In this document: positions 54,158 to 60,736 of the stretch, piece by piece
How positions within the stretch are numbered: the first letter of the stretch is position 1
Layout: the number at the start of each line of letters is the position of its first letter
NCBI RefSeq assembly: GCF_030384885.1
Contig: NZ_CP128613.1
Length of the DNA stretch: 64,000 bases
Strand: one strand, 5' to 3'
Source of the DNA: Escherichia coli
GTDB lineage: Bacteria > Pseudomonadota > Gammaproteobacteria > Enterobacterales > Enterobacteriaceae
Position numbers and translations under genes: made by a program
The notes under the pieces: model-generated
The model's input: only the letters and a program-made list of their open reading frames with translations
Databases searched by the model: none
What the model was told of the DNA's origin: nothing

Positions 54158-54360
54158 TAAATCACCCGGCAGCGTTTCTTCTGCGCTGCCGGGATTAACG
54201 GTAATAAATTAGTTACCGTGATATAACCGCAGATATTTTTCCTGGCACGGCGGTAGCGCGCAGATAACCATTCATTATTAAAATAAACTTACCGTAGAGT
54301 GGGTTTAATTATTTATTAGCTGAATAAATTATACCGGTGCCTCCTGGAAGGAGTGAGTTT

Positions 54361-54786
54361 ATGCTTGTGTTAAAATCACAATCGATTGGATTCAGGATTT
54401 CCACAGCTTATTTATCTTTAACATATACAGAGTCTGATGGCGTCAAGATTAAAGTAGATGCTCTGGAGTTAATATCAACAGAGAGAGATTATGTTCAAAT
54501 TGAACTGGTCTTCACTACTGTTGCTGAAGTTAAGTGTGCTACCGTCAATTTTTATGAAGCCAACTATAACAATATTGTTATTAAGAAGGTTGATGGTGAA
54601 AATCTGGACTCCGGTATATATCAAGTAATGAATTCTGTACCGCTTGAAGAAAAAGAGAAATTATATGATCCTAAAAAACGGTTGAAGTTAAAACATTATA
54701 TTATAGCAGGTTATGATAGTTATGTTGAGATTTTAGCTACTGGTTTTAGCTGTATACGATGCCAGGCAATAGATGGTGTTAAATAA
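54361..54786 (+). CDS. Hypothetical protein (141 aa), first gene of AT-rich accessory cassette; no signal peptide or TM segment
   Basis: ATG with AGGAG RBS 7 nt upstream; about 33 percent GC; stop overlaps next start (TAATG). Confidence 0.6.
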   Translation: MLVLKSQSIGFRISTAYLSLTYTESDGVKIKVDALELISTERDYVQIELVFTTVAEVKCATVNFYEANYNNIVIKKVDGENLDSGIYQVMNSVPLEEKEKLYDPKKRLKLKHYIIAGYDSYVEILATGFSCIRCQAIDGVK

Positions 54787-55040
54787 TGGCCTATCATATA
54801 GAAATATTGAAAATTGAAGAAACTGATAAAGTAGTAAAATATGAATTTGGACCTACATCTTCTGACTATTGTAGATCTGATTACGGCGAATTCGTGATAG
54901 ATAAAAGAACGGGTGAGATGACATTAGTCAGAATGGTTAAAAACGATTCAGCTAATAAATTTTATTTGCGAGCGAGTTTTAAGATTCTGACCTGTTGGCG
55001 AAAGGGCTATTTGCCAAAAAATGAGGAATGGGCTTCTTAA
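54786..55040 (+). CDS. Hypothetical small protein (84 aa), translationally coupled to upstream ORF
   Basis: ATG overlaps upstream stop by 1 nt; AT-rich; no recognisable motif. Confidence 0.55.
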   Translation: MAYHIEILKIEETDKVVKYEFGPTSSDYCRSDYGEFVIDKRTGEMTLVRMVKNDSANKFYLRASFKILTCWRKGYLPKNEEWAS

Positions 55041-55139
55041 TAAGTAACTTTGCAGAATAAGTGAATTTTCCCATTTTTTTGGGGGCAGTCGTTGATTCTT
55101 ACACAGTTTATGTTATGGGTGCCAAATTTAGGATAGGCT

Positions 55140-55619
55140 ATGGATTTTCACTTGGATATTTTGCTCCCTACACAATTCGCTCCAGAGGAACTAGATCTAC
55201 AAGAGGTTATGATTCACTGGGGTGGGGAAACCTTTCATCGCGACCCTCCGGTATACGCCTGGTGTAATCATCATCTTTTGCAGAGATGCAATCTACCGAT
55301 TACTTATGGCCCACCTTTAGATGAGCACATAGACTTTAATGAATATCATGTTTACAACTTCAATGGTTCTTTAGTCGATGACCTGGAAATGGCTGTGAAT
55401 AAAGGAAAGGATATTTCAACCAATCCTATAATTAAATTTATTAACAACCTGGTTAGCAAAAATTACGGGGGGTGGGTAATCTTGTCATTAGATGATGAAA
55501 AAATAGAAGTGATTAAAAATATAAGCTTCCAGTATTCTTTTCTATCATTATTAGTTGATGGACTAAAATGGGAAAGACCGCATGGGGTGGCAATATTATA
55601 TAATTCACACTTAATTTAA
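55140..55619 (+). CDS. Hypothetical protein (159 aa), cytoplasmic-type
   Basis: ATG with AGGATAGG RBS; AT-rich; no TM. Confidence 0.6.
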   Translation: MDFHLDILLPTQFAPEELDLQEVMIHWGGETFHRDPPVYAWCNHHLLQRCNLPITYGPPLDEHIDFNEYHVYNFNGSLVDDLEMAVNKGKDISTNPIIKFINNLVSKNYGGWVILSLDDEKIEVIKNISFQYSFLSLLVDGLKWERPHGVAILYNSHLI

Positions 55620-55640
55620 TTAATTAATGAATGGAAACAT

Positions 55641-55943
55641 ATGTATCGTGTAAAGGTTGTTTGGCTTACAGAAAATGAAGGTGGCAGAAGGAGCGCACCT
55701 CCTATCGGTAGATATTATCCCGTCTCCAGGTTTCCAGAGGAGAAAACTGACTGGCAAAATAATGCATGGAGTGTTGTTTTTGAATTGGAAAAACCTAATG
55801 TAACCGATGGACGTATCGTTTCAATGGGGTGCGTTCAGTTCCTTTTCGATACCGCCCCTGAACAATGGATGACTAAGTACGAGGCATTTGAGATCTACGA
55901 AGGACCAAGAAAAGTCGCAGATGTATTATTGATAGGGAATTAA
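55641..55943 (+). CDS. Hypothetical small protein (100 aa) with apparent similarity to the C-terminal beta-barrel (domain 3) of EF-Tu-type translational GTPases
   Basis: By-eye alignment to E. coli EF-Tu domain 3: VKVVWLTENEGGRR vs EVYILSKDEGGRH, RYYPV vs GYRPQ, C-terminal AFEIYEGPRKVADVLL vs RFAIREGGRTVGAGVV. Confidence 0.55.
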   Translation: MYRVKVVWLTENEGGRRSAPPIGRYYPVSRFPEEKTDWQNNAWSVVFELEKPNVTDGRIVSMGCVQFLFDTAPEQWMTKYEAFEIYEGPRKVADVLLIGN

Positions 55944-56004
55944 TTTTATTTATGTCAGGCTATTTAATTATATTTGCGACCTCAACGCATTTTCAGGAGT
56001 ATAA

Positions 56005-56538
56005 ATGCGTAACAAAAAACGCATACTATTCTTGCTAACAGTCATTTTTTGCTTAACAGGTCTTTATTCCTGCAACAAAAATTTTCTCTTACTCTGGGAT
56101 GCCAATAATATGTATGTCAGCACAAGAAATAATATCGATAAAGACAAGGTAAAAATAGAATTCGGTATCAGCGTCAACACGATCAACCGAGAAACGGATG
56201 CCGAATTATTTGCTGACAGAGATAAGTATGCAGTGCTCTTCGATGGTAGCCTGAAAAATAAGATGATAAGCGAATACGGAGAAAATGATTTTTTAATTAC
56301 CTACGATAACCGCTGCTATTTATCATTTCGTCAATTTAAAACAAATCGTCGTCATCAACATGACTATTATTTTGACTTCTTTAACAAGGATGGGAATGTC
56401 TTCGTCACGGTCGAAATTAAAGGTGAGAACCCGCTTAAATTTACGCGTAGTTTTAATGATATGCGTCAGCAGTTTTCACCATTCCGTAAGGGTAGCCCTT
56501 CTCACTCCTGCAAGGTTATTTCTTCAGATCCTTCTTAA
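56005..56538 (+). CDS. Hypothetical lipoprotein (177 aa)
   Basis: AGGAG RBS; N-terminus MRNKKRILFLLTVIFCLTGLYSC resembles lipoprotein signal peptide; 3' end overlaps convergent gene by 23 nt. Confidence 0.6.
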   Translation: MRNKKRILFLLTVIFCLTGLYSCNKNFLLLWDANNMYVSTRNNIDKDKVKIEFGISVNTINRETDAELFADRDKYAVLFDGSLKNKMISEYGENDFLITYDNRCYLSFRQFKTNRRHQHDYYFDFFNKDGNVFVTVEIKGENPLKFTRSFNDMRQQFSPFRKGSPSHSCKVISSDPS

Positions 56539-58510
56539 ACACTGGTTCTGGACAATCACGACCAAAATGCGCCGCCCAGTCAAAAGATTTACCGTTTTTC
56601 ACGTAGCGTTGATAAATTAATGCACCGGTTTCTGGATCAAGATATCTGATCCAACTTGCAGCATGGCATAACACGGCAGCCCAAGCCTGGGTTTTAGGGT
56701 GAAGTAAATCGGCTGATTGTCCGGCCCATTCCGCAGCCTGCCAGCGGTAATGCAAAAAATGCTCATCAACAGTGGGGATTGCGTGGCGGAAACGTTGTTT
56801 TTCTTTACGACTTATCCACTGATCGTTATTGCTGTATTCAAAGGGTTCTGAATACTGCCCGCTGGTAATGGCATAATCGGGATACATTTCATAAGCCGCC
56901 AATTCGATACCACTGAAACGCAAAAGCCGCGCAGCTTCGTATTGCGCCTGGGCGCGTTGCTTATCAGGGATGTTTTTATTTTTTGCTATCGCCATTAAAT
57001 CAGCCAGTTTTTGTGCGGCCTGGCGATAATTGGGAATATCAAACCAATTGATGGCCTGCTGGTACTGGCCATGACGAATTAATCGTCTACCCAATAACGC
57101 CCGTAATTTAACATCCGTTGGAATGATATCTGGCGAAAGATAATAACCGTCATTGTTATTATTTAAATCTACAGGTTTTAAAGGGTGCTGAGGTACCGGT
57201 ACGTTTTTTTCAACAAACGCCTGTAACTCCGGTAAGGTCAAAACGTTTTCTGCAACCCAGGCTAAATCGGCCCAATAGAGATCTTTGGCCTGGTAAAACA
57301 ATGCGGTGGCCTGAAGATAATCATCGCGTTTTAATGCCAAAATCGCCTGCTCACTGGCAATACGGCAAGATGGGATAATAACTTTATCTCCATGATAATA
57401 AGGACTTTCCGGGTCCATACTTCCCCACACTTCATCGGTCGGGAACATCGGGGCTGCGCGAGCATAGTGACGCGTTGCCAGTGGAATATCTCCGGCTCGT
57501 AATGCCATTTTTGCTTTTAACCATTCGCTTAATCCACTTTCTGGCGCATCCTGCAACAGCGTTTGTGCTAACGAATAATTTCCTGCCCGATACGCCAGTG
57601 CTGCCAGGCGATCGCTATAACTAAATCCTTTAACTCTGTGTTGACTTAGCAACTTAATTAAACGGTCGCGATGCGTTGGACAGGTATAATCTACAAGGTC
57701 CTTAGTACAGGCTTCGCTAACATACCCCCAGTCATGACGAATAAAGAGCTCTGCGATTACCAGTTGCTGAACCAGAGAATCATTAATAACCGACTCCAGC
57801 AGTGGTAAATTTTTCTCCCTGGTTATATACAGCGAAATCATCCGTAGCGACGCTTTCCCGGAGGGCGAACCCTGGGCCGCTTGCCGGGCATACATTTTTA
57901 CTGCCGCAGCGACATCACCTTTTTTCAGATAATAATGCCCAATCTGACCGAGACTGGCGAGAGAGAGCAATTCAGGATCGGCTGCGCCATTACGCACTTC
58001 TTCAATGATTTGCTGATAACGCTGTATGGCCTGCTCAGCAAGTTCCTGATTAAAGCCACCTTTATTGATTATAAGATCGAGATCGTCGTCAGAGGCATCA
58101 AATCCCCCCCTTGCCAGACTATATAGCGCAGCCAGCCGCCATTCTCCTTGCTCTGTTTTCGGCAAGGCTAATAATTGCTGAAAGTATGGGCTATCGTATT
58201 TTCCCTGATGGAAATCCTTAGCTCCTGAATAATAAAGTTCCAGTGCCCGATTTTGCACAGGAGGTTCAGCATCTGTATCTGTCTGCGTTGCCTCTTCAGG
58301 CGTATTTTCTTGCCATACTGGTAAACCAGGATCGCGTTTAACCAACTGTTGTACTTCAAAGACAAAACTGCCATTTGGCATTTCCAGCAGTGCGCTATTG
58401 CGGTCAGTTAACAGATGATTGGGAATAAATGGTCCACAGGCATTAACGTTGGCGCTAATTAGCGAGAGAAATACAACAACGGAAAGCCGCGATATTTTAG
58501 GGGATAACAT
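56516..58510 (-). CDS. Hypothetical large lipoprotein (664 aa) with helical repeat (TPR/Sel1-like) character
   Basis: ORF 56516..58735; start placed at ATG 58510 (MLSPKISRLSVVVFLSLISANVNAC, lipobox) with AGGAGAG RBS; near-native GC; start overlaps upstream gene stop by 14 nt. Confidence 0.75.
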   Translation of the reverse strand: MLSPKISRLSVVVFLSLISANVNACGPFIPNHLLTDRNSALLEMPNGSFVFEVQQLVKRDPGLPVWQENTPEEATQTDTDAEPPVQNRALELYYSGAKDFHQGKYDSPYFQQLLALPKTEQGEWRLAALYSLARGGFDASDDDLDLIINKGGFNQELAEQAIQRYQQIIEEVRNGAADPELLSLASLGQIGHYYLKKGDVAAAVKMYARQAAQGSPSGKASLRMISLYITREKNLPLLESVINDSLVQQLVIAELFIRHDWGYVSEACTKDLVDYTCPTHRDRLIKLLSQHRVKGFSYSDRLAALAYRAGNYSLAQTLLQDAPESGLSEWLKAKMALRAGDIPLATRHYARAAPMFPTDEVWGSMDPESPYYHGDKVIIPSCRIASEQAILALKRDDYLQATALFYQAKDLYWADLAWVAENVLTLPELQAFVEKNVPVPQHPLKPVDLNNNNDGYYLSPDIIPTDVKLRALLGRRLIRHGQYQQAINWFDIPNYRQAAQKLADLMAIAKNKNIPDKQRAQAQYEAARLLRFSGIELAAYEMYPDYAITSGQYSEPFEYSNNDQWISRKEKQRFRHAIPTVDEHFLHYRWQAAEWAGQSADLLHPKTQAWAAVLCHAASWIRYLDPETGALIYQRYVKNGKSFDWAAHFGRDCPEPVFKKDLKK

Positions 58511-59705
58511 TGAACTCTCCTTGTAAATTTGGGGTGCATCGCGCCCATCCCAGCGCACTGCTTTCACCAGCACGCAACTGCCTGGTACTGATGCGAATAA
58601 AACGTAACGAGGATGCGTTGGTTTGTGCCTGATAATGGCCTGCGCCATCAGCATATGTGCATTGAGCAGCAGGCAGCTCGATCTGTTGTGGCAATGGCGC
58701 GTCAATATCACCATTGTTTTTAATGGCCAAATCAATAAGTTGCTTGTCAGCCTGTGGCGAAATTATCAAAGACCAGCGCGGCGTCAAAGGTTTATGGTGA
58801 ATAACGGCATCTAAAGTAGACAGGGACCAGGCGCGGCGATCATTTGCCAGCGGGAGTCGGAACCAGATAAATCCCTGTAACCCTGAGGGCGGTTTTTGTT
58901 CCAGCTGTTGGGTAAAATCAGCCAACGTTTGTGGCGCCACACTCAGCTCCCGCAACTCTTGTGCAATATACAGTGGGGCTTCGCTTTCAATACGGTTATC
59001 GCGCGTCAGCGCAGAACCGTAAGCCGGCAGAGCGATGTAAAAAGGATGGGGAGAAATACGTGCATATTGCGTGCTCCAGCGCTTAGCCAGTTTACTGTCG
59101 AATAATCCCTGTTGCGGCGATAACACCGTATGCACCTGCAAAACAGAAATATCGGCGTCAGCCAGCAGCGCAGGCAGATGTGGTGAATTCAGCCAGTCAG
59201 GTAATGCAGTAATACTGAGTTTTAATTCTGCAGGAAGATTCTGGCGCAATGTCCTTAGCAACTGTTGGTATTCCACCAGTTTTGCCGTTGGCGCATCGAA
59301 ATCAATTTCAATGCCAGCCAGCTTAATACCCGCCTCTTTCCACTCATTCATTGTTCGTACAATGTTCTGCACAACATTTTGTTGATTAATATGAGAGAGC
59401 TTACCGTCCAGTCGCGCAACCAGCCAGACGGGGCGATCATCTTGTTTTATAAATGTTTTATTAACGGCGGTGTAGCGTATACCTTCCTGAGGATGAACTT
59501 GTAGCTCCAGAATGCGTAGCGTTGAGAACAGATTACGGCTCTGTTTTAGTGCGTGCTCATGTTGCGCGGTCCACAAACGCTGCCAGATATAGACTTGTTG
59601 ATCGAGGGGGCGTGTTTTTTGCGGCATAAGCCGGGTCAGCAGCCCATATCCAGAGCCGATAAAAACGATGAGTGAAATGGCAAAAATCCATTTGCGAGAG
59701 GGCAT
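58497..59705 (-). CDS. Hypothetical membrane-anchored periplasmic protein (402 aa); alternating beta-strand/helix pattern and GIEIDFD motif suggest a TIM-barrel glycosidase-like fold (inference)
   Basis: N-terminal TM helix IFAISLIVFIGSGYGLL; motifs VWLVARLDG, AGIKLAGIEIDFDAP, ISVLQVHTV; translationally coupled to downstream lipoprotein gene. Confidence 0.75.
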   Translation of the reverse strand: MPSRKWIFAISLIVFIGSGYGLLTRLMPQKTRPLDQQVYIWQRLWTAQHEHALKQSRNLFSTLRILELQVHPQEGIRYTAVNKTFIKQDDRPVWLVARLDGKLSHINQQNVVQNIVRTMNEWKEAGIKLAGIEIDFDAPTAKLVEYQQLLRTLRQNLPAELKLSITALPDWLNSPHLPALLADADISVLQVHTVLSPQQGLFDSKLAKRWSTQYARISPHPFYIALPAYGSALTRDNRIESEAPLYIAQELRELSVAPQTLADFTQQLEQKPPSGLQGFIWFRLPLANDRRAWSLSTLDAVIHHKPLTPRWSLIISPQADKQLIDLAIKNNGDIDAPLPQQIELPAAQCTYADGAGHYQAQTNASSLRFIRISTRQLRAGESSALGWARCTPNLQGEFNVIP

Positions 59706-59758
59706 TTGAACCCGGAATCCATGTGGTCAATAACAGAAAGTATACTGCGGAACTATTT

Positions 59759-59790
59759 AGCGGAGAAATTATTCCATTAATTTCTCCGCT
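59759..59790. terminator. Perfect 13-bp-arm hairpin between kdgK stop and the downstream operon (candidate terminator/attenuator)
   Basis: agcggagaaatta-ttccat-taatttctccgct; no canonical U-tract on the kdgK transcript side. Confidence 0.4.
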
Positions 59791-59806
59791 ATGATTGATG
59801 TGTTAT

Positions 59807-60736
59807 TTACTGAGGCATGGCTTCGCGAGGAATAATCGCGCCGCGATACTGAATAACGGTACTTGCGGTCAGGTGCCCGCGTTTCGCCGCATTTTCCGCA
59901 CTGGCGCCCGTCAAACGTACCGCCAGATAACCGGCACTGAAAGAGTCGCCAGCTGCAGTGGTATCGATCACTTTTTCTTTTGGCAGTTTCACCGCCGGAA
60001 CATCCACTAACCCCTCGCCAGCAATGGACACCAGGCAAGAATCCGCCCCGCGTTTCACCACCACTTCTTTCACGCCCGCGTTATGGGTGCGCGCAATGAC
60101 GTCTTCCACCGGTTGTTGACCCCACAGCGCGTCTTCGTCGTCCAGCGTCAGGAAGGCGATATCCGTGCATTCCAGCATTTGCTGGTACATCTGCTGTGTC
60201 TCTTCTTTGCTGGCCCACAAGCGCGGACGGTAGTTATTGTCGAAAATCACTTTTCCACCGTTAGTGCGGCATTCGCGCAGCAGGGAAAGCAGCTTTTCGC
60301 GGCTGGTCGGGCTTAAGATTGCCAGGCTAATCCCGCTCAGGTAGAGATAATCAAAATTCGCCAGCTCTGCACAAATCGCTGCGGATTGCTCACTCTCCAG
60401 CCAAAATTTGGCGGCGGCTTCGTTACGCCAGTAGTAGAACGTACGTTCGCCAGTGCTGTCGGTTTCAATGTAGTAAAGACCCGGCAGACGGTTTTCCATC
60501 CGCTGGGTCAGGGAAGTATCAACGTTCTCGCCGTGCCAGGCGTCCAGCATCTGCTGACTAAAACTGTCCGTTCCCAGCGCCGTCACGTAATGAACGGTTA
60601 ATGCCGCAGGATCGACCTGACGGGCGATATAGACGGAAGTGTTCAGGGTATCGCCGCCGAAACCGCGCTTAACGTCCGCGCCTTTCTCGGAAAGCTCAAT
60701 CATGCATTCGCCAATCACGGCAATCTTTTTGGACAT
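59807..60736 (-). CDS. kdgK: 2-dehydro-3-deoxygluconokinase
   Basis: 309 aa; MSKKIAVIGECMIELSEKGADVKRGFGGDTLNTSVYIARQV; PfkB family. Confidence 0.95.
   Translation of the reverse strand: MSKKIAVIGECMIELSEKGADVKRGFGGDTLNTSVYIARQVDPAALTVHYVTALGTDSFSQQMLDAWHGENVDTSLTQRMENRLPGLYYIETDSTGERTFYYWRNEAAAKFWLESEQSAAICAELANFDYLYLSGISLAILSPTSREKLLSLLRECRTNGGKVIFDNNYRPRLWASKEETQQMYQQMLECTDIAFLTLDDEDALWGQQPVEDVIARTHNAGVKEVVVKRGADSCLVSIAGEGLVDVPAVKLPKEKVIDTTAAGDSFSAGYLAVRLTGASAENAAKRGHLTASTVIQYRGAIIPREAMPQ

Follow-up and report, generated by a model that had tools for sequence, protein, structure and literature searches.

A stretch of 64,000 nucleotides of Escherichia coli DNA (NCBI RefSeq assembly GCF_030384885.1, contig NZ_CP128613.1), referred to here as the window, carries on one strand two overlapping genes whose products are a 402-aa protein of the DUF3142 family and a 664-aa partner resembling tetratricopeptide repeat (TPR) proteins. 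We consider it somewhat probable that the two form a self-contained two-subunit periplasmic glycan-processing module. The evidence for this reading is the pairing of the two genes across genera with a nearly constant junction, together with the export signals of both proteins and the fold and invariant residues of the first, which has the barrel of glycoside hydrolase family 18 (GH18).

Gene structure and conservation of the pair

Both genes (Table 1) were called at identical coordinates by the RefSeq annotation pipeline, PGAP, in NZ_CP027579.1, the sequence of E. coli 2013C-4282, which is 100% identical to the window. A sequence-only reading of the window had described two open reading frames (ORFs) with a 14-nt overlap at this place, and the ORF list and PGAP agree with it. 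The ORFs are real genes rather than chance frames, because the products have hundreds of homologues, including some at E<1e-100 for each, and because dN/dS, the ratio of nonsynonymous to synonymous divergence, came to 0.15 (402-aa gene) and 0.28 (664-aa gene) when the alleles of SMS-3-5 were used for comparison. An AAGGAG Shine-Dalgarno sequence lies inside the 402-aa gene, 6 bases 5' of the ATG of the 664-aa gene. The mechanically compiled ORF list also held a TTG-initiated frame of 739 aa for the partner; this frame is disfavoured, since the 664-aa start is backed by the Shine-Dalgarno sequence, by the signal peptide and by the conserved overlap.

Relatives were collected by scanning one genome per species with a strict peptide pattern, which gave 455 species genomes. 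The best 80 of those loci were taken, from Escherichia, Phytobacter, Klebsiella spallanzanii, Serratia, Budvicia, Enterobacillus, Iodobacter and, for about 65 of them, Pseudomonas. At all 77 informative loci (3 others end after the first gene) the helical gene came next, directly 3' of the DUF3142 gene and in the same orientation. A start codon (73 ATG, 3 GTG and 2 TTG) precedes the end of the first gene by exactly 14 nt at 78 of the 80 junctions, and the consensus across the junction reads AGGAG, 6 nt, ATG, 8 nt, stop. Chania and two metagenome-assembled genomes showed the same arrangement. Because the overlap is kept across orders, comparison of these sequences provides strong support for translational coupling of the two genes, as had been proposed from the E. 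coli junction, and much stronger support than that one genome could offer.

In a clustered set of 20 loci from at least 10 genera, the two genes alone were common to all, and no glycosyltransferase, porin, transporter, type VI secretion system (T6SS) or sugar-catabolic gene travelled with them. In Serratia and Chania the pair is located between genes for a PanZ-like acetyltransferase and a liv-type ABC transporter and genes for an rpoH-like sigma factor and FtsX/FtsE-like proteins, and Klebsiella, Phytobacter, Budvicia, Iodobacter and Pseudomonas each have it in differing contexts. The pair thus appears to be an obligate, autonomous two-gene unit. The neighbourhood of kdgK, cellulose (bcs) and cyclic di-GMP (c-di-GMP) genes is specific to Escherichia, and is therefore uninformative on function. 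The role that the sequence-only reading had tied to these neighbours is not supported, since no neighbour except the partner gene is conserved across genera.

Some variations in gene order were seen. One contig (L010, 2388-7230) has the order DUF3142, partner, DUF3142, and Enterobacteriaceae bacterium B14 (L025, 7024-12331) has two tandem partner paralogues and no 14-nt overlap. Single ORFs of 981-1176 aa join the DUF3142 and partner domains in P0145 (L009, 525-4055), P0193 and the AlphaFold database entry A0A8S0H9A0. These fusions were rejected as evidence for interaction: P0145 has an internal signal peptide and a truncated beta-sandwich, and is probably a frameshift or gene-calling artefact.

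Properties of the two proteins

The 402-aa protein, named DUF3142 domain-containing protein in RefSeq, matched Pfam DUF3142 (PF11340) with an E value of 3.4e-73, residues 89-286 covering model positions 1-201 of 202. An AlphaFold2 model made with 72 homologues as input (pLDDT, the predicted local distance difference score, 94; pTM, the predicted template modelling score, 0.89) consists of an N-terminal helix, a GH18-type (beta/alpha)8 barrel and a C-terminal beta-sandwich. The single N-terminal transmembrane helix expected from the letters of the window was seen in the model and in the hydropathy profile, which peaks in the 19-residue window at residues 6-24; the glycosidase-like barrel suspected because of the GIEIDFD motif was recovered too, with the motif as strand 4. 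The protein has the same three-dimensional fold as the solved DUF3142 member TfeC (8Y6T).

Conservation was judged from an alignment of 72 homologues having 30-49% identity. Twenty residues are invariant, i.e., Y39, W41, Q42, W45, R98, E133, D135, D137, Y146, T166, L168, P169, W171, Q190, H192, E242, P258, W281, P285 and D289, and when the alignment is placed on the model the majority map to, or just past, the C-terminal ends of the barrel strands, the location of the active site in TIM-barrel enzymes. E133, D135 and D137, which are present in 72 of the 72 homologues, belong to the strand-4 motif. C349 and C390 of the beta-sandwich are conserved in at least 90%, which is consistent with a disulfide that may form in the periplasm.

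GH18 proteins (chitinases and SleL, an N-acetylglucosaminidase acting on peptidoglycan) share the fold of the 402-aa protein at 10-18% identity and with no significant sequence match. A hidden Markov model alignment with the GH18 protein SleL puts D135 and D137 on the D-x-E of SleL, at an E value of 0.96 that is not significant alone. By pattern and this weak alignment, E133, D135 and D137 replace the D, D and E of the GH18 catalytic motif DGxDxDxE; that is, the family has E-x-D-x-D where GH18 has D-x-D-x-E, and the acid/base residue is Asp. The GH18 motif DxxDxDxE with Glu as acid/base was not found in the 402-aa family, in which the sequence is AGI-E133-I-D135-F-D137 and Asp occupies the Glu position in 72 of 72 homologues. 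GH18 enzymes further have SxGG and MxYD motifs, neither of which was seen on inspecting the consensus of the 72 homologues, and a Pfam scan of the 402-aa protein at E<=10 returned DUF3142 alone, with no Glyco_hydro_18. Given the lack of a significant GH18 sequence match and the presence of Asp as acid/base residue, the 402-aa protein represents a distinct family with the GH18 fold and an analogous acidic motif, outside GH18 proper.

TfeC of Yersinia pseudotuberculosis (PDB 8Y6T and 9VTV) is an antifungal chitinase delivered by T6SS4, according to two reviews (PMC13008689 and PMC13162877) that both cite Zhu et al. 2026 (Nat Microbiol 11:240, doi 10.1038/s41564-025-02208-z), and it is the only characterised DUF3142 protein (PMC13008689). 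It is related to the 402-aa protein at the sequence level (profile E 1e-13, phmmer E 1e-6) and shares its D-x-D, having QIDFD at the strand-4 position, but has Gln where the 402-aa subfamily has the invariant E133. TfeC is exported by the T6SS, whereas the 402-aa protein is exported by Sec. A literature search found DUF3142 only named, with no functional account, and nothing on PF11340, 8Y6T or 9VTV. In 38 of the 72 enzyme homologues a lipobox replaces the N-terminal helix, with a median distance of 13 residues from the Cys to the barrel. The enzyme is thus predicted to be a lipoprotein in about half of the homologues, and the E. coli form to be helix-anchored with a similarly short tether.

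The partner is exported by a signal peptide, and its N-terminal motif is CGPxFPxxLLxDR. The lipoprotein signal assigned earlier, ANVNAC, is present and includes Cys25, but the lipobox reading of it is doubtful. Among 99 distinct partner N-termini, A at -1 and C at +1 were found in 99, G at +2 and P at +3 in 98, and A, G, S or V at -3 in 97; position -2 varies among L, Q, Y, M, N, R, H and W. None of 75 distinct N-termini fit the strict lipobox [LVI][ASTVI][GAS]C. A permissive PROSITE-like pattern was fitted by 31 of the 75, and the V-N-A-C of E. coli is not among them. The site looks instead like the small-x-Ala (AxA) cleavage pattern of signal peptidase I. Cys25 is in a low-confidence, flexible part of the model. 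At the C-terminus, a hydrophobic helix and then an Arg-rich tail were found in 63 of 78 locus-derived homologues, nearly all from Pseudomonas, and in 18 of 40 aligned homologues, all non-enterobacterial; the Enterobacterales and Iodobacter versions are without the helix. This C-terminal element resembles a membrane anchor or a sorting signal. Because the lipobox fails and many homologues have the C-terminal membrane helix, lipoprotein status of the 664-aa protein seems doubtful, although the invariant Cys would still allow lipidation.

The 664-aa protein folds as a helical-hairpin solenoid, in keeping with the helical half of the TPR/Sel1-like character given to it by the sequence-only reading. 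At the level of sequence profiles, the top Pfam TPR match of the E. coli protein had E 0.6; among 40 partner homologues, one matched TPR_16 and one TPR_12 at E<=0.001, and no Sel1 match was seen. CpoB/YbgF and BamD-type TPR proteins were among the top matches. Nothing was found when the family profile was run against PDB sequences, and NCBIfam, PADLOC and PHROGs gave no meaningful match for the 402-aa protein, the 664-aa protein or five small proteins encoded nearby; an NCBIfam match to PrsT (15.6 bits, the cut-off being 312) was dismissed as noise from TPR similarity. The partner belongs to an undescribed TPR-like family. Its invariant charged residues in the C-terminal half are E387, E421, E428, R475, R479, R531, D545, E570, R573, H587 and R589, and C615 and C653 are conserved. 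The partner of SMS-3-5 and of Escherichia sp. E1V33 has 680 aa versus 664 aa here, with 16 gap columns in the alignment. Nucleotide identity falls to 0.69 at 58146-58253 of the window (partner residues ~86-122), a segment overlapping the low-confidence model residues 70-85.

Table 1. Features of the gene pair and its surroundings, in window coordinates
Feature	Position	Strand	Remarks
402-aa DUF3142 protein gene	58497..59705	-	From the ORF list; putative GH18-like, membrane-tethered
664-aa TPR-like partner protein gene	56516..58510	-	ORF starting at ATG 58510
Coupling junction	58497..58522	-	AAGGAG 58517-58522, ATG 58508-58510, stop TAA 58497-58499
N-terminal hydrophobic helix (signal anchor), residues 4-26 of the 402-aa protein	59628..59696	-	Helix in the model; no Cys, hence no lipobox
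(beta/alpha)8 barrel, residues 35-300	58806..59603	-	Secondary structure of the model
Strand-4 motif G131-I-E-I-D-F-D137	59295..59315	-	Position of the GH18 catalytic motif DGxDxDxE
C-terminal beta-sandwich, residues 311-402, with Cys pair C349/C390	58500..58775	-	Model strands 311-401
Signal peptide (residues 1-24) and invariant Cys25 of the 664-aa protein	58436..58510	-	Cys25 at 58436-58438 starts the motif CGPxFPxxLL
Perfect 14-bp stem with 6-nt loop	59758..59791	-	Inverted repeat between kdgK stop and 402-aa start; no U tract after
Convergent 177-aa hypothetical gene	56005..56538	+	3' end overlaps the 664-aa gene by 23 nt

The locus in Escherichia

Around the pair the genes run hmsP, dctA, yhjJ, five small hypothetical genes rich in AT, the 664-aa gene (-), the 402-aa gene (-), kdgK (-), pdeH and yhjG. 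Of 5426 complete E. coli genomes, 30 carry the pair. The other 29 carriers are of the SMS-3-5 type and have the pair at the same site; in SMS-3-5 itself the 177-aa convergent gene is present and the other four cassette genes are absent. The four-gene AT-rich cassette alone was found in 169 of the 5426 genomes, at ~98.6% identity. EcPF15, a cassette-only strain, has 92 nt with a hairpin (L091, 5819-5910) in place of window positions 56476-59813 (3338 bp), a segment that runs from the 3' end of the 177-aa gene through both genes of the pair and takes in the intergenic region. This makes the pair a discrete indel unit of ~3.3 kb at the yhjJ-kdgK site. The fifth cassette gene of EcPF15 becomes 194 aa long and overlaps kdgK. 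The pair occupies the same site in Escherichia sp. E1V33, and the exact 402-aa and 664-aa proteins of the present strain occur also in E. fergusonii. This distribution would fit an old presence in Escherichia followed by repeated loss.

Compared with the SMS-3-5 allele, the enzyme has 66.8% protein identity and a synonymous divergence (dS) of 1.58, whereas the partner is 93% identical with dS 0.12, and the flanking genes have dS ~0.1. The divergent block spans ~58548-59896, from the enzyme gene across the intergenic region into the final ~90 nt of kdgK. Over this block the present strain shares only 60-79% identity with SMS-3-5 and E1V33, two sequences that agree with one another at 91-97%; in the partner gene and the flanks, identity is 88-100%, save one indel window. 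The breakpoint of the divergent block lies at the 14-nt gene junction, and the locus is a mosaic.

The AT-rich block at 54158-56538 consists of five small hypothetical genes with a GC content of 0.33-0.39. The pair has a GC content of 0.45-0.50, closer to native than that of the cassette, as the sequence-only reading had noted. The 177-aa gene is 88% identical in SMS-3-5 and absent beside the pair in other genera; it probably lies outside the module and accompanies the pair in Escherichia only. The N-terminus of the 177-aa protein is lipoprotein-like (LTGLYSC). The hairpin on the kdgK side of the pair is ~15 nt 3' of the kdgK stop, in a 116-nt region that folds at -29.7 kcal/mol (z -3.8), and could stabilise RNA or act much like a terminator. 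Rfam returned no RNA family for 53.5-61.5 kb, a promoter and terminator scan gave nothing beyond the shuffled expectation, and this hairpin was all that a repeat search returned.

Proposed function, alternatives and significance

From the gene structure, family membership, fold, export signals, pairing and overlap described above, we infer the following scheme of catalysis, interaction and substrate. The N-terminal helix would anchor the 402-aa protein in the inner membrane, and a tether of ~10 residues would hold the GH18-like TIM barrel and the beta-sandwich at the periplasmic face. Since E133-x-D135-x-D137 is at the position of the GH18 D-x-D-x-E, the barrel is expected to cut a glycosidic linkage adjacent to an N-acetylhexosamine; D137 would be the acid and D135 would assist it, as in TfeC. 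With a ribosome-binding site for the second protein lying in the last part of the first gene, the two proteins would tend to be made together. After export by its Sec signal peptide, the 664-aa protein would form a large TPR-like solenoid that may bind the enzyme, the glycan or both, as a scaffold, substrate-presenting subunit or regulator. The short tethers would place the active site near the membrane surface, which favours a membrane-proximal substrate, such as a nascent or lipid-linked GlcNAc glycan (peptidoglycan or another envelope polysaccharide) or chito-oligosaccharides taken up by the cell, rather than the bulk wall farther away, and would speak against a role linked to kdgK or the cellulose genes. 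None of the named substrates is probable by itself: peptidoglycan or a nascent glycan is slightly ahead, chito-oligosaccharides follow closely, an exopolysaccharide such as poly-N-acetylglucosamine (PNAG) is a little less likely still, and the largest share is left to some other substrate. In concept the pair is like the TPR-controlled peptidoglycan enzymes NlpI-MepS, LpoA/LpoB with the penicillin-binding proteins, and CpoB, in which an envelope enzyme has a TPR adaptor, and MltG is a membrane-anchored glycan-strand cutter with a short linker, as in the 402-aa enzyme. The NlpI, Lpo, CpoB and MltG systems, however, are encoded by core genes and have no sequence relationship to the present pair, which is accessory and often lost.

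Several observations weigh against a glycan-processing module of this kind. The frequent loss in E. coli means that the pair is dispensable. Partner genes without an adjacent DUF3142 gene occur in a Tahibacter sp. (L004, 8001-10283) and a metagenome-assembled genome of the Rhodanobacteraceae (L007, 8001-10172), where they adjoin queA-tgt. That the two proteins interact physically is suggested by gene order alone. The sequence link to GH18 is weak, neither the SleL alignment nor an hhalign comparison with E. coli ChiA (E 0.27) being significant, and Asp stands at the position of the catalytic acid, which in GH18 is Glu. TfeC is 22% identical to the 402-aa protein, so that its activity may not transfer, and at 262 aa it has no beta-sandwich and, as deposited, no membrane anchor.

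The possibility that the pair is an accessory to the cellulose, c-di-GMP or 2-keto-3-deoxygluconate (KDG) genes, trimming or exporting a biofilm polysaccharide or processing pectin or alginate oligosaccharides upstream of KdgK, is suggested by the position of the pair in Escherichia between yhjJ and kdgK, near pdeH, hmsP and bcsC. In synthase-dependent exopolysaccharide systems a periplasmic glycosidase is indeed paired with a TPR protein (BcsZ/BcsC, PgaB/PgaA, PelA/PelB), and the Joint Genome Institute (JGI) label on two homologues is "cellulose synthase operon protein C". That label most likely reflects generic TPR similarity, however, and we regard the accessory role as very improbable. The context of the pair varies, with no synthase, porin or sugar-catabolic neighbour common to the 20 loci, and the adjacent glycosyltransferase and outer-membrane porin of synthase-dependent secretion were absent among the Pfam-annotated neighbours. 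Unlike PgaB/PgaA, PelA/PelB, BcsZ/BcsC and AlgL/AlgK, the present pair has no synthase, porin domain or c-di-GMP receptor alongside it, and its partner is of a family distinct from the exopolysaccharide TPR proteins, with the CGPxFP motif and, in most non-enterobacterial lineages, the C-terminal helix. The fold of the enzyme is like that of GH18, which is specific for N-acetylhexosamines, and unlike that of glycoside hydrolase family 8 (GH8) or a lyase. Moreover, many E. coli strains have bcs and kdgK yet are without the pair.

The 402-aa protein might also be a secreted toxin, i.e., an antifungal or antibacterial effector like TfeC, with the helical protein providing immunity or acting as a chaperone. 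Such a role would agree with the sole characterised DUF3142 member being a T6SS effector (PMC13008689), with the AT-rich block of small orphan genes adjoining the pair, and with the highly divergent enzyme allele beside a conserved partner, a pattern sometimes seen at conflict loci; but the dN/dS of the enzyme is that of purifying, not diversifying, selection. A Sec-type anchor, or a lipobox with its tether of about 13 residues, marks the enzyme and is foreign to T6SS effectors, while the partner is exported by a signal peptide of its own and, with 664 aa, greatly exceeds the typical size of an immunity protein. T6SS, Rhs and VgrG genes were common to none of the 20 loci, PADLOC and PHROG matches were lacking, and the pair does not have the make-up of a T6SS effector-immunity pair, in which a Sec-less effector linked to T6SS, VgrG, PAAR or adaptor genes has a small cognate immunity gene. 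We therefore think a toxin highly unlikely. A non-catalytic, chitinase-like lectin barrel with a TPR adaptor, serving as an envelope tether or sensor, is also unlikely, if less remotely so, for the E-x-D-x-D triad is invariant across distant homologues, and non-catalytic GH18-like proteins usually lose these acidic residues. The same D-x-D is present in TfeC, reported to be an active chitinase (PMC13008689).

In sum, a glycan-processing module remains our favoured reading, and it bears on the DUF3142 family as a whole, to which 1599 cluster representatives match at E<=0.001. The comparison shows that the common form of DUF3142 is a membrane-tethered, periplasmic, GH18-like putative enzyme locked to a large helical partner of unclassified family by an unusually conserved 14-nt overlap, and that the sole characterised member, an atypical secreted effector, differs from this form. 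The architecture of the 402-aa enzyme is new within a family that has one recently characterised member, and E133, D135 and D137 define a candidate catalytic motif for it. The module is widespread but accessory, being found in Pseudomonas, Serratia, Escherichia, Xanthomonadales-type bacteria and acetic-acid bacteria; in E. coli the locus is rare, and its medical and physiological weight there is probably modest. A bolder view, which we offer as a speculation with the chances rather against it, is that the pair is a widespread, so far unrecognised periplasmic machine that acts at the membrane surface to cut a lipid-linked or nascent N-acetylhexosamine glycan, e.g., terminating or editing peptidoglycan or another undecaprenyl-linked polymer, and that the invariant N-terminal Cys-Gly-Pro motif and highly conserved C-terminal half of the partner give it a specific regulatory or second catalytic function beyond generic scaffolding. 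If true, such a machine would define a new glycoside hydrolase family activity and a new family of partner proteins.

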